Shown: positions 10,378 through 15,519, counted from the first letter of the stretch. The stretch is DNA of 64,000 bases from Chlamydiae bacterium RIFCSPLOWO2_12_FULL_45_20 (GCA_001796285.1 MGMD01000001.1:10143-74142), one strand, 5' to 3'. Notes: generated from the letters alone by a model not told the origin. A program made the numbers and translations.

Positions 10378-12249
10378 ATGGAGCATAAATACTCGATCAA
10401 TTACGTCTACTTTGGAATCCTTTTTGTGTTGCTCTCGCTGTTTGTAGCAAGCAATATGTCGCAGAAAAACGCCTTGGCTGGGTCCTATTTTTTTTTCTTC
10501 CTATACGCCCTTGGGCAAGTCACTTTGGAAATCATCCTCTTCATTGTCGTGGGAGAACTGATCAGACAATTTTTCACAAAGGCCCTATTCTTTTTCTTTA
10601 TCGGCTTGACTTTTCTAGCCCTTGTTGTCCATTTTTTTGATTTTTTAATAGAACGAATTTTGGATCTTTCAGTGTGGAGAGCTCTACAGATTTTTGTTTT
10701 AGATGAAAATATAGAAAACTTCTTCTACCTTCTCGATGCCTCAGGGATCTCATTGTGGATTTGGCTGCTATTTTTTGTGTTATTGAGCTCTGTGCCATTC
10801 ATCGGAATCTTTTTTTATAAAATGACCCTACTGATCGTCCAAAAAAAGCCTCTGCAGCTAGAAAGCGCAACACTTCTTCAGGCTGCGATTTGTTTACCTT
10901 TTGCCCTTTTTTTTTGGGATTTTTCTGCATCGGCAACGATTCATCCTGATACCTACACGGCATTTACCACCTCTCTTCCTTGGAAAACAACTTTTTTAGA
11001 ACCAGAAAAAAGACGGATTCACCTTTTAAACCCTCTAGCAAATCCTCTAGATGAAAAAGGAGTCGCCCTCGCCATCCAAGAAGACTCAACAAACCTTCGC
11101 TATAAACCGAACATCTACCTTTTCATTGTTGAAAGCTTGCGGGCTGATGCGATCTGCGATGAAGTGGCCCCAAATGTACAGCAATTTAAAGAACATAGCG
11201 CCCATTTCGTCCATGCCATCTCTGGAGCCAATGCAACGCATATCTCATGGTTTTCCATTTTTCACTCCCAATTTCCATACCACTGGAAACATATGCAAGA
11301 AAGGAAATGGTCTATGGGAAGCCCCGCCCTAAACCTTCTGAAACACTGGGGCTATCAGGTACGGCTCTACACTTCCGCGCAGCTAGGCTATTACAAGATG
11401 CAAGATCTTCTTTTTGGCAAAGACCTTCATCTCCTGAATGCAAAACAAGAATTTTTCCATACGTCCACACGCACAGCAGCAGACACAGATGCATTAGCGC
11501 TAGCGGCTCTAAAAAAAGATCTTTTAGAAAACCCTGAACTACAATCGGGCCAAGTCTTTATCATCTTTTGGGACTGCACTCATTTTGATTATAGCTGGCC
11601 CAAGAATTGGACGCCCAAATTTACCCCCTATACACAAAAATTTGTCTATTCCCACGCTTTGCATTCCAAAAAAGCCATCCAATCCATGAAAAATAAATAC
11701 CATAACTCTATTCACTACATGGATAGCCTCTTCGGCTCATTTTTAGAGTTTCTTCCCGATAAGGAGCGAGCCATCGTCGCCTTCACTGGAGATCATGGCG
11801 AGGAATTTTTTGAAAATGGACATCTTTTTCACCTTTCTCATTTGACAAACATGCAGATCCATGTACCGCTATTTTTAAAATTTGGAGACCTCCCTGCCCA
11901 GACATATTTTTTAGCCTCACAAATGGACATTTTTCCCTCAATTGCCCATTACCTCAGTGGAAAACACTACCCTTTCCTTCAAGGGACTTCGATATTCTCC
12001 GTCCATCCTTGGCCTTACGCAGTGACCGCTCGCTTCAATGCGGGAAGAACTCCCTATGAATTTTCCATTCATAACGGAAAACATAAGCTGATTGCTCAAT
12101 TCATTCATCCCAACAATATTTTTTCTGGGAAAGATCTGAAAATCATTTCGCTGAGGACCTCCAATGAAAAGAGAGTTGATGACACAGAGAGCGATCAGTG
12201 GATTGAAAAAGAATTTGGAGATGCTCTCAAGCGTCTATTCAGGCTGTAA
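10378..12249 (+). CDS. membrane-bound alkaline-phosphatase/sulfatase-superfamily transferase (EptA/LtaS/OpgB-like), paralog 1
   Basis: 623-aa ORF with an N-terminal polytopic domain. NIYLFIVESLRAD (nucleophile-type GE-S/T-xR context) and GDHGEEFFENGHLFH are metal-site motifs of the sulfatase fold. Confidence 0.7.
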   Translation: MEHKYSINYVYFGILFVLLSLFVASNMSQKNALAGSYFFFFLYALGQVTLEIILFIVVGELIRQFFTKALFFFFIGLTFLALVVHFFDFLIERILDLSVWRALQIFVLDENIENFFYLLDASGISLWIWLLFFVLLSSVPFIGIFFYKMTLLIVQKKPLQLESATLLQAAICLPFALFFWDFSASATIHPDTYTAFTTSLPWKTTFLEPEKRRIHLLNPLANPLDEKGVALAIQEDSTNLRYKPNIYLFIVESLRADAICDEVAPNVQQFKEHSAHFVHAISGANATHISWFSIFHSQFPYHWKHMQERKWSMGSPALNLLKHWGYQVRLYTSAQLGYYKMQDLLFGKDLHLLNAKQEFFHTSTRTAADTDALALAALKKDLLENPELQSGQVFIIFWDCTHFDYSWPKNWTPKFTPYTQKFVYSHALHSKKAIQSMKNKYHNSIHYMDSLFGSFLEFLPDKERAIVAFTGDHGEEFFENGHLFHLSHLTNMQIHVPLFLKFGDLPAQTYFLASQMDIFPSIAHYLSGKHYPFLQGTSIFSVHPWPYAVTARFNAGRTPYEFSIHNGKHKLIAQFIHPNNIFSGKDLKIISLRTSNEKRVDDTESDQWIEKEFGDALKRLFRL

Positions 12250-13701: not shown

Positions 13702-15519
13702 ATGCAACGGCTTTTAAGCAAATTGTTACATCATAGAGTAGAGATTAACTATCTATATTTCAGCTTCTTCCTGCTTTTTGTAATCTTTTTAAGCCTCTTT
13801 CATTTTTTTACTTGGGACCCTCCGCTTCAAAAGGTCAGTATATTTTTTATTTGTTATGCTGTGGGTCAAGCATGTCTAGAGACCTCTATTTTGGTATTTA
13901 TCACCTATATTTTGAAGTCCTGGGCTCCTCGTCCCATCTATTTTTTATTTATCTCTCTTTCTTTTGTTTTTTTGCTTCTTCACTTTACCAATTTCACCAT
14001 GGTTCGTCTGATGGACGCGACCCTGATGTACGTAGTGAAATTTTTTTTCGGATCTGGGAGGGATCATATGGTGGCAGGCCTGCAGGCCCTCAACATGAAT
14101 GGGACGATGGCAGCGATCATTCTTTTGACGTTCTCGAGCATCCCGGTTATTGGATTATGGTTCTACTGCTTTACGCGCTGGCTGGGAAGGAGACGAACGC
14201 TGAACCTTTCTTTGATGCAAATTGGCGCAGTCATTATGGCCGTATCCTTGGCCCTGTTTCTTTTTGATGTTTTTGCAAAAGACTTGTTTTTACCCAAGGA
14301 ATACTGCAAATATCAAAAAACACTTCCCCTGGGTATGACATTCTTATCGCCCAAAAAAAATTTTCTAGAGCTCCCACGGCCGCTGAGGCCGTTTCGGGAT
14401 GAAAACAAAACATTGGGATGCCTTCCTACAGGGACTTTAGCCAGCAAGCCGAATATTTTTCTTTTCATTGTGGAAACCCTACGAAAAGACTATCTCAGCT
14501 ATGCCCCTTATTTAACCCAATTTGCCCAAGAAAACATCCAGTTTGAGCACTCTTTTGCCAATGCCAGTTCCACATACCTTTCTTGGTTTACCATCTTTCA
14601 TGCCGACTTGCCCATTTACTGGGCCTCCATGAGAGATCATTGGAAAGGTGGCAGCATCCCCCTGACCCTTTTGAAAAAACTTGGTTATGACATCCATGTC
14701 TATTCGGCAGCAGACCTGCATTTTTTCAATATGGATCGTTTGATTTTTGGCACCCATAGAGAATTGGTCGATCAAATGGAAGAATATGGACTTTGCCGAA
14801 CCTTAGAGCCCTATGAAAGAGATCTGTTAGCCTTTGAGTCTTTAAAAAAAAACCTACCATCAGAGGGCAGGTTATCGATTGTCTTCCTCGATTCAACACA
14901 CTCAGAGTACAGCTTTCCCAAAGACTTTCCCTTGGCCCATGTGCCAATTTGTAAAGAAATCGACTACTTGACCATCGGACCCAAAAGTCCGCAGCTTGAA
15001 CTCATTAAAAATCGATATAAAAATTCCATCCGCTTTGTGGATTCCCTCTTCGGCGCATTTTTCGAGCACCTCAAAAAAGAGGGTCTTTTCGATAACGCAA
15101 TAATTGCGGTAACCGGAGACCACGGAGAAGAATTTTTTGAAGAGGGAGCTCTGTTTCACGGCACACACCTCAATTCGCATCAAACAGCTGTACCCATTCT
15201 TCTGAAATTTCCCTCCAAAGATTGGGTCCCCCAGCTCCAAACCGCTTCGCACATCAATCTCTTCCCATCCATTCTCCATTACCTTACAAAACAAAGTGAT
15301 CTAGGAGAACTATTTGACGGCCAATCCATTTTTAGTCTGAAACACCCAGACACCAGACTCACAGCCCTTCAAAATGGACCCGATACACCCCTCGAATTCA
15401 CTCTGGATAGGGAGGAGTTTCGCATGCGTGCGCGATTCGCAGGTCCGCAAAAGCTTGAAGTTGTGGAATTGCAGGGATTGCTGGATCCTGCTATGCTTCT
15501 TCCGTTTCTCGAACATTAA
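13702..15519 (+). CDS. membrane-bound alkaline-phosphatase/sulfatase-superfamily transferase, paralog 2
   Basis: 605-aa ORF with the same architecture as 10378..12249: NIFLFIVETLRKD and GDHGEEFFEEGALFHG. Its stop codon lies in a solo copy of the MITE arm. Confidence 0.7.
   Translation: MQRLLSKLLHHRVEINYLYFSFFLLFVIFLSLFHFFTWDPPLQKVSIFFICYAVGQACLETSILVFITYILKSWAPRPIYFLFISLSFVFLLLHFTNFTMVRLMDATLMYVVKFFFGSGRDHMVAGLQALNMNGTMAAIILLTFSSIPVIGLWFYCFTRWLGRRRTLNLSLMQIGAVIMAVSLALFLFDVFAKDLFLPKEYCKYQKTLPLGMTFLSPKKNFLELPRPLRPFRDENKTLGCLPTGTLASKPNIFLFIVETLRKDYLSYAPYLTQFAQENIQFEHSFANASSTYLSWFTIFHADLPIYWASMRDHWKGGSIPLTLLKKLGYDIHVYSAADLHFFNMDRLIFGTHRELVDQMEEYGLCRTLEPYERDLLAFESLKKNLPSEGRLSIVFLDSTHSEYSFPKDFPLAHVPICKEIDYLTIGPKSPQLELIKNRYKNSIRFVDSLFGAFFEHLKKEGLFDNAIIAVTGDHGEEFFEEGALFHGTHLNSHQTAVPILLKFPSKDWVPQLQTASHINLFPSILHYLTKQSDLGELFDGQSIFSLKHPDTRLTALQNGPDTPLEFTLDREEFRMRARFAGPQKLEVVELQGLLDPAMLLPFLEH

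Follow-up and report, generated by a model that had tools for sequence, protein, structure and literature searches.

The 64,000-nt window analysed here (Chlamydiae bacterium RIFCSPLOWO2_12_FULL_45_20, MGMD01000001.1:10143-74142; coordinates are counted from its first nucleotide) encodes a 462-residue protein in which a low-molecular-weight thioredoxin reductase (TrxR) is fused to a C-terminal thioredoxin (Trx) and preceded by a hydrophobic leader. The members of its family share a conserved predicted export signal, which is of the signal peptidase I (SPase I) type in the Chlamydiota and of the lipoprotein type in the Dependentiae. The TrxR-Trx fusion as such is already known, and what is new here is a TrxR-Trx fusion bearing an export signal. 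Judged from its sequence, it is evenly balanced whether the fusion is a Sec-exported single-chain thioredoxin system acting as a disulfide reductase in the periplasm or envelope, while export alone is somewhat more probable than that. The fusion gene and its parts are the following:

12235-13623, minus strand: fusion gene (leader-TrxR-Trx), 462 residues from the ATG at 13623, stop codon at 12235-12237 (open reading frame (ORF) list, Pfam, NCBIfam)
13561-13623, minus strand: N-terminal hydrophobic leader MFHFFQSFLLAIFLPILSLGS, a predicted Sec signal peptide of 21 residues (translation and family conservation)
12619-13539, minus strand: low-molecular-weight TrxR module, residues 29-335 (Pfam, NCBIfam, motifs)
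13120-13137, minus strand: redox-active CAICDG, residues 163-168
13069-13086, minus strand: NAD(P)H Rossmann motif GGGDAA (translation)
12997-13017, minus strand: VRTDKLT at the position of the NADPH 2'-phosphate motif (alignment with canonical TrxRs, column counts)
12544-12618, minus strand: basic linker between TrxR and Trx, 25 residues (translation; residues 338-354 have a predicted local distance difference test (pLDDT) score below 50)
12247-12543, minus strand: thioredoxin domain, residues 361-459 (PF00085, TIGR01068)
12454-12468, minus strand: WCGPC active site, residues 386-390

That a complete TrxR and a C-terminal thioredoxin lie in one ORF, as the original prediction had it, is borne out by Pfam, by NCBIfam, and by the motifs GGGVGS, CAICDG, GGGDAA, and WCGPC in the translation. 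Pfam identifies Pyr_redox_2 (PF07992) with an E-value of 2e-43 (149 bits versus a cut-off of 26) and Thioredoxin (PF00085) with an E-value of 2.9e-24 (85.5 bits versus 23.5). The NCBIfam thioredoxin model TIGR01068 scores 98.2 bits, which is over its cut-off of 96.8, and the TRX_reduct model TIGR01292 scores 300.8 bits, which is under its equivalog cut-off of 343.45. In the TrxR module, the FAD site GGGVGS comprises residues 34-39 and the C-terminal GD motif AIGD residues 302-305. The cis-Pro motif of the thioredoxin domain is MPT at residues 430-432.

A search with the 462-residue protein returned more than 1000 matches at E<=1e-10, the best 120 of which are all fusions of about 445-515 residues with 57-70% identity. 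One of these 120 is a 99%-identical 462-residue twin on an independent ENA contig (P0001). Fusions of TrxR and Trx had been called rare, which fails for this lineage given the number of homologues. In an exhaustive profile search of 1.84 billion 50%-identity representatives there were 4574 matches at E<=1e-30, and the best 150 of these, which were examined, score more than 320 bits, nearly all as one stretch over most of the profile. By these sequence matches the family is large and comprises at least 150 clusters at 50% identity. Its catalytic motifs are strongly conserved. Among the 121 homologues that entered the column counts, the FAD-site glycines and the GD as well as C163, C166, and D167 are invariant, and so is WCGPC except for its G. 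Altogether, the FAD motif, CAxCDG, GGGDxAxxEA, R204, and WCxPC show no or almost no variation in these sequences, and the distant homologues keep them.

The leader is conserved to a similar extent. At least 20 residues precede the first Rossmann strand in 106 of the 121 close homologues, and the remaining 15 are gene calls whose start is a Met within the conserved PMSA motif. A 10-residue hydrophobic core with a Kyte-Doolittle value of at least 1.8 is found in 96% of the 106 leaders, a net positive n-region in 89%, and a net negative stretch beyond the core in 94%; the uncharged stretch has a median of 16 residues. Based on the positive-inside rule, a basic n-region combined with an acidic stretch past the core predicts an N-in/C-out orientation. 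The cores often contain prolines and end in AxA-like sites followed by an acidic mature N-terminus, as in LPVMPMSA/VEP (the slash denotes the candidate cleavage site). Sec (SPase I) signal peptides are characterised by a basic n-region, an h-region of 7-15 residues, small residues at -3/-1, and a polar or acidic mature N-terminus, and the sequences of the family agree with every one of these rules. By its anatomy, the leader thus looks like a cleavable Sec signal peptide and not like a 20-residue transmembrane anchor. A hydrophobic leader is also present in 117 of the 136 sequences that were new among the best 150 of the 50%-identity representatives and in all distant fused homologues, and in none of the canonical TrxRs from the same scan. 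In the large Dependentiae/Babeliales subfamily (about 500 residues) a lipoprotein signal replaces the leader. A regular expression detects a lipobox (e.g. L-S-G-C, near residue 15-25) in 76 of 119 Dependentiae-type sequences, and more are recognised by eye. Because lipobox processing is confined to exported proteins, this is independent evidence for a family working outside the cytoplasm.

The leader of the window protein has an h-region followed by the candidate sites S-L-G/S or L-G-S/V and then by EEP. A true start downstream of the hydrophobic segment, which would have spoken against the original prediction, can be dismissed. The sole in-frame start past the leader is a GTG within the first Rossmann strand, and a Shine-Dalgarno-like AGGTGG is located 4 nt upstream of the ATG at 13623.

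Concerning the coenzyme, the family consensus at the position of the Escherichia coli HRRxxxR is V-R-K-x-x-x-R/K in the 121 homologues, and distant members keep R-[K/R/S]...R/K at this 2'-phosphate position. The TrxR-like enzymes known to work without NAD(P)H no longer have these NAD(P)H-site motifs. As the motifs are kept family-wide, the family looks competent to bind pyridine nucleotides, and its thioredoxin is of the reducing WCGPC type.

If these features are taken together, the fusion would be made with a cleavable Sec signal peptide and would work outside the cytoplasm, in the periplasm or envelope. A pyridine nucleotide bound to the second Rossmann domain would reduce the FAD and bring electrons into the flavoprotein module, from which the redox-active disulfide (CAICDG) would pass them to the WCGPC of the tethered thioredoxin. 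The thioredoxin would finally deliver them to envelope disulfides or to thiol-dependent repair enzymes. Export, the loading of FAD after export, and the direction of the electron flow are inferred steps of this scheme, and the weakest one is the donor, which could be host-derived NAD(P)H reaching the periplasm. Host-derived NAD(P)H is proposed because of the almost exclusively host-dependent distribution of the family and because these bacteria import host nucleotides. The TM6 genomes encode ATP/ADP translocases, and a reliance on nucleosides from the surroundings has been inferred for them (PMC4776705). The full version of the scheme, in which Chlamydiota and Dependentiae would export a complete flavin-dependent thioredoxin system that is driven by host-derived NAD(P)H and bypasses DsbD/CcdA, appears doubtful.

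Several observations weigh against an exported, pyridine nucleotide-driven reductase. In the window leader, K6 of the relatives is replaced by Q, so that the basic residue of the n-region is gone and no K or R is left there. A twin-arginine motif is not present, and the flavoprotein must therefore fold and gain FAD after Sec export. The second Rossmann domain was described correctly as far as the intact GGGDAA is concerned, but the 2'-phosphate motif of the window protein reads V-R-T-D-K-L-T and not HRRxxxR. Only R204 is kept, and two of the three basic phosphate-binding residues are lost. T205 and T209 are each found in only two of the 121 sequences, namely the window protein and its 99%-identical twin, and coenzyme specificity may be altered or weakened in these. 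The AlphaFold2 (AF2) model of the fusion, built from an alignment of 21 sequences, is of low confidence (mean pLDDT 69.9, predicted template modelling score 0.48, low pLDDT for residues 1-23) and thus allows no conclusions on the docking of the domains or on the NADPH pocket. Finally, we know of no periplasmic NAD(P)H pool in any bacterium, and that an exported enzyme should have conserved its NAD(P)H site is as much a paradox as a support.

The family-wide NAD(P)H Rossmann motif and the basic phosphate-binding residues would be explained most simply by a cytoplasmic enzyme on an uncleaved N-terminal anchor, as the original prediction had preferred. Such an NADPH-dependent TrxR-Trx would sit at the inner face of the inner membrane, near membrane clients, and both the missing twin-arginine motif, which a folded flavoprotein would need for export, and the window leader without K/R would be in accordance with it. 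However, it is hard to reconcile with the N-in/C-out orientation predicted from the basic n-regions and acidic post-core stretches, with the short (median 16 uncharged residues) and proline-rich cores that are followed by AxA-like sites, and with the lipoboxes of the Dependentiae homologues, which are processed on exported proteins only. The conserved leaders, their signal-peptide features, and the lipoboxes together favour export, which the original prediction had considered surprising, and we regard the cytoplasmic tether as distinctly improbable. The protein could also be exported and not be driven by NAD(P)H. It would then be either a thiol oxidase similar to QSOX, DepH, or GliT, which makes disulfides by passing electrons from substrate thiols via Trx and the CxxC to FAD and further to O2 or quinone, or a system whose Trx is fed by a DsbD/CcdA-type transporter and whose flavin module hands the electrons to another acceptor. 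Precedents exist, as DepH and GliT are TrxR-fold dithiol oxidases and QSOX is a fusion of Trx and a flavoenzyme. The lack of a known periplasmic NAD(P)H and the two basic residues lost in the window protein would also be accounted for. In five of six Dependentiae-type loci (L053, L058, L061, L071, and L072), a DsbD_TM gene (CcdA-like, PF02683) is located 0.1-4.6 kb from the lipoprotein TrxR-Trx, which supports this alternative and in general fits an extracytoplasmic thiol-redox setting. In contrast, tblastn detected no DsbD_TM gene in the 64-kb window or in the chlamydial loci examined. In addition, the Trx site is a nearly invariant WCGPC of the reducing type and not CPHC or CGHC, GGGDxAxxEA and R204 are invariant, and most members have K205 and R/K209. 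An exported enzyme independent of NAD(P)H is therefore unlikely.

An intact NAD(P)H site would be sensible in the host cytosol, and the family is almost confined to obligate intracellular lineages. Both points suit a secreted effector, which would reach the periplasm by Sec and would then leave the cell through type II secretion or with vesicles, either to the lumen of the vacuole or to the host cytosol, where host NADPH would be used to reduce host disulfides or those of the bacterial surface. There is a precedent, because chlamydial periplasmic proteins bearing Sec signals can reach the host cytosol, e.g. cHtrA (PMC3107777). However, the Dependentiae members are predicted lipoproteins and hence membrane-tethered, and there are no secretion-system genes among the annotated neighbouring genes, so that we consider an effector clearly unlikely.

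The family was further analysed in a locus scan with one genome per species, which yielded 70 loci. Chlamydiota and Dependentiae are host-dependent, obligate intracellular bacteria, and nearly all loci belong to metagenome-assembled genomes (MAGs) of Chlamydiota (Parachlamydiales, Rhabdochlamydiaceae, and 'Ca. Sacchlamyda'), with several from Dependentiae/TM6/Babeliales and a few labelled Verrucomicrobia or Woeseiaceae. Cultured chlamydiae and Chlamydiaceae are not among the 70 loci. A TrxR or TrxR-Trx that is exported or periplasmic is not described in the literature searched. The Babela paper notes just an 'expansion of thioredoxin reductases' (PMC4378268), and the TM6 paper just TrxR genes or their expansion (PMC4776705). 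The TrxR-Trx fusions with a predicted export signal are apparently an undescribed family.

In the window, the fusion gene is placed between two genes for sulfatase-fold proteins, here called SULF_A and SULF_B. The three ORFs, with the middle one on the opposite strand, have the coordinates that had been predicted:

10378-12249, plus strand: SULF_A gene, 623 residues, PF00884, convergent with the fusion gene
13702-15519, plus strand: SULF_B gene, 605 residues, PF00884, divergent neighbour of the fusion gene
13624-13701: divergent intergenic region of 78 bp between the fusion gene and SULF_B, with the Shine-Dalgarno-like AGGTGG and presumably both promoters

At its maximum, the fusion ORF spans 12235-13707 (minus strand, 490 residues) and opens with a TTG. 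The TTG at 13707 was rejected as start because it would overlap the start of SULF_B divergently, the homologues align from the ATG, and it is the ATG that is preceded by AGGTGG. SULF_A and the fusion gene share 15 nt at their 3' ends (12235-12249), so that there is no space for an intergenic terminator. A promoter and terminator scan of 12000-14000 did not find more sites than in shuffled sequence, and shared regulation of the fusion and SULF_B is therefore left without any inference. The sole Rfam match in the window is a tRNA at 62505-62589. With tblastn, a second TrxR/Trx was detected neither in the 64-kb window nor in the chlamydial loci, but a canonical cytoplasmic TrxB may be encoded elsewhere in the genome.

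Both flanking ORFs match Sulfatase (PF00884) with E-values of 1e-19 and 6e-23 (71 and 82 bits), and they are paralogues with 34% identity over 595 residues (E 2e-102). Two paralogous sulfatase-fold enzymes in opposite orientation to the fusion had thus been recognised rightly. Of the two motifs named for them, GDHGEEFF is present in both (as TGDHGEEFF), but the other one reads IVE(S/T)LR and not GE(S/T)LR. The AF2 model of SULF_B (pLDDT 83.8) consists of five N-terminal helices (17-38, 47-74, 77-104, 134-162, and 171-192) and a C-terminal alkaline-phosphatase fold, and the catalytic domain is predicted to be periplasmic. The metal ligands E258, D473, and H474 are invariant and the nucleophile T291 nearly so, and all are conserved in both paralogues. 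When the two proteins were searched against PDB sequences, the matches were only weak and partial, so that a fold search was needed. The best PDB fold match of SULF_B is full-length PbgA/YejM (6v8q, 6xlp) with E-values of about 1e-17 (best 3.6e-18) and a TM-score of about 0.43 over the whole chain, or 0.73-0.77 if normalised by the structures of the PbgA/YejM periplasmic domain. YejM periplasmic domains, sulfatases, and LtaS follow. The label EptA/LtaS/OpgB-type holds for superfamily and architecture but not for the specific families, because the NCBIfam scores are far under the cut-offs: 24.8 and 25.5 bits versus 500 for NF028537 (EptA/OpgE phosphoethanolamine transferase), 30.5 versus 825 for NF038282 (PbgA/YejM/LapC), and 29 versus 970 for the LtaS model, with the EptB and MCR models likewise far below cut-off. 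The automatic JGI name 'glucan phosphoethanolaminetransferase' is also good at the superfamily level only. SULF_A and SULF_B are membrane-anchored and probably catalytic enzymes of the alkaline-phosphatase superfamily.

The arrangement of the three genes is conserved within one chlamydial clade but not beyond it. SULF_B is found divergently upstream (gap 50-570 bp) in 34 of 35 loci whose fusion is at least 53% identical to the window protein, and upstream in one of 19 loci with less similar fusions. In the former group, SULF_A is convergent downstream within 1 kb in 21 of 33 loci and within 6 kb in 20 of 23; in the latter it is downstream in two of 18. In several loci, 1-5 kb of inserted sequence lies between the fusion and SULF_A, and in five (L014, L015, L020, L024, and L029) the available downstream flank (3-8 kb) does not contain SULF_A. 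The trio is embedded in a longer syntenic block of a Bac_transf sugar transferase, GalE, an unknown protein, a methyltransferase, SULF_B, the fusion, SULF_A, HAD, TruA, SWIB, and a UGP3-like UDP-sugar pyrophosphorylase, so that much of its conservation is simple synteny. The two flanking genes are encoded on the other strand, which precludes their co-transcription with the fusion, and the most that SULF_B and the fusion could share is the 78-bp divergent control region. It is therefore rather probable that the order of the three genes was just inherited within this clade and does not reflect a functional module. What argues against inheritance alone is the divergent SULF_B-fusion pair itself, which persists even in L014, L015, and L024, where almost no other genes of the block were detected; this is a hint that selection acts on the two genes together or on a control region common to both. 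Since sulfatase-fold genes are linked to the fusion in one clade only, it is unproven that the three genes function as a module, and the envelope redox-remodelling module that had been proposed from the link to SULF_A and SULF_B is a possible hypothesis.

Other genes of the neighbourhood should also be mentioned. The regions 6093-8081 and 17818-19409 (both minus strand) have an envelope-glycan flavour amid housekeeping genes (truA, SWIB). The envelope-glycan genes near the fusion are those of the UGP3-like UDP-sugar pyrophosphorylase, which has a C-terminal hexapeptide domain, a GalE-type epimerase, and a Bac_transf initiating sugar transferase. An ORF of 340 residues at 16372-17394 (minus strand) has neither a Pfam match nor a signal peptide and is 38-78% identical (mostly more than 54%) across the syntenic block. 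This is unusually conserved for an unknown protein, which could be a chlamydia-specific structural or effector protein. Recurring neighbours in the distant chlamydial loci are a YchJ-like protein, unknown secreted proteins, a PF01663 phosphodiesterase, and an amino-acid permease, among which there is no obvious redox partner; they probably reflect clade synteny. The phosphodiesterase (soluble, about 411 residues) is encoded about 2 kb downstream in L044, L045, L050, L051, and L057, which are Rhabdochlamydia-type loci without SULF neighbours. Directly upstream of the fusion, each of the three Babeliales-type loci examined (L071-L073) has two small ORFs for Gly-rich secreted coiled-coil proteins (e.g. 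5068-5913 in L071). They were ruled out as substrates because they do not contain cysteines.

Some members of the scan deviate in their origin or domain composition. Three of the MAGs labelled Verrucomicrobia or Woeseiaceae (L012, L023, and L048) have chlamydial gene order or neighbour families, including a 92%-identical SWIB gene in L012, and L014 of the same group has only the SULF_B-fusion pair in common with the chlamydial loci. All four are probably mis-binned chlamydial contigs. A MAG labelled 'Pseudomonadota' (L059, 4740-9232) encodes three tandem leader-bearing TrxR-Trx paralogues. The second and third copies have degenerate NAD(P)H Rossmann motifs (GSSD and GTGD) and changed Trx sites (CFPC and CLAC), and these motifs suggest diversification away from NAD(P)H use. 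In a Parachlamydiales MAG (L068, 8001-8876), the slot between SULF_B and SULF_A is occupied by a leader-bearing TrxR of 325 residues without a Trx domain. Lipoprotein forms of about 361 residues that consist of TrxR only are L060, P0336, P0341, and P0346. The domain order is reversed in P0461 and P0493, in which an N-terminal signal peptide is followed by Trx and then by TrxR. There are also very long multi-domain relatives with 1427 (P0398) and 1379 residues (P0459), the latter with about 10 Trx-like stretches.

To our knowledge, the textbook view does not include an NAD(P)H-dependent disulfide-reducing flavoenzyme in the bacterial envelope. Reducing equivalents go from cytoplasmic TrxB/TrxA across the membrane via DsbD, CcdA, or ScsB, and we know of no supply of reducing power to the bacterial envelope other than the DsbD/CcdA route. 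An exported TrxR-Trx family with a kept NAD(P)H site would challenge this view. If true, either a pyridine-nucleotide pool, plausibly of host origin, would have to be usable outside the cytoplasm, or the TrxR scaffold would have a new electron donor or acceptor. For the chlamydiae, the fusion would then be a candidate reductant of the disulfide-cross-linked envelope. As a candidate enzyme for envelope disulfide reduction or repair, it is so far found in uncultured environmental lineages and not in Chlamydiaceae.

Compared to known systems, the flanking enzymes share the five N-terminal helices and the extracytoplasmic sulfatase fold with PbgA/YejM (LapC), LtaS, and EptA/EptC. PbgA is generally taken as a non-catalytic lipopolysaccharide sensor, whereas the catalytic residues are kept in the flanking enzymes, and the identity of SULF_B to PbgA/YejM is only 14-17%. 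The fusion itself resembles NTRC of chloroplasts and cyanobacteria (PDB 7p9d/7p9e), which is its top PDB sequence match (220 bits) and has the same order of TrxR, linker, and Trx with WCGPC. NTRC is also the likely mechanistic model, in which electrons flow from the NTR module to the tethered Trx, as is thought between the subunits of the NTRC dimer. However, NTRC is a protein of the stroma or cytoplasm without a bacterial export signal, whereas the fusion has a Sec- or lipoprotein-type leader, and the window protein has VRTDKLT where HRRxxxR is expected. The TrxR module is no closer to NTRC (199 bits versus 7p9d) than to a plain proteobacterial TrxR (219 bits versus 5vt3), and the match of the Trx module to the NTRC Trx is weak (19 bits). 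Thus, the fusion looks independent of NTRC, and from these scores a separate origin is the likelier one. The Mycobacterium leprae TrxB-TrxA and other chimeric bacterial TrxB-TrxA proteins also have TrxR followed by Trx in one polypeptide. They are described as cytoplasmic, and it is these descriptions that set them apart from the fusion. In the literature searched, we came across no chimeric TrxB-TrxA that is said to carry a signal peptide or a lipoprotein signal, and the survey of bacterial Trx systems in which chimeric TrxA-TrxB enzymes are noted does not speak of signal peptides (PMC10880999). ScsB-type transporters have been reported in Chlamydia (PMC3322552). Like the fusion in the proposed scheme, the DsbD/CcdA/ScsB pathways, with thioredoxins of the TlpA, ResA, Etrx, and PprX types, bring reducing power to extracytoplasmic thioredoxin folds. 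In these pathways the flavoenzyme is cytoplasmic and a cysteine-pair transporter crosses the membrane, whereas here the flavoenzyme itself carries the predicted export signal.

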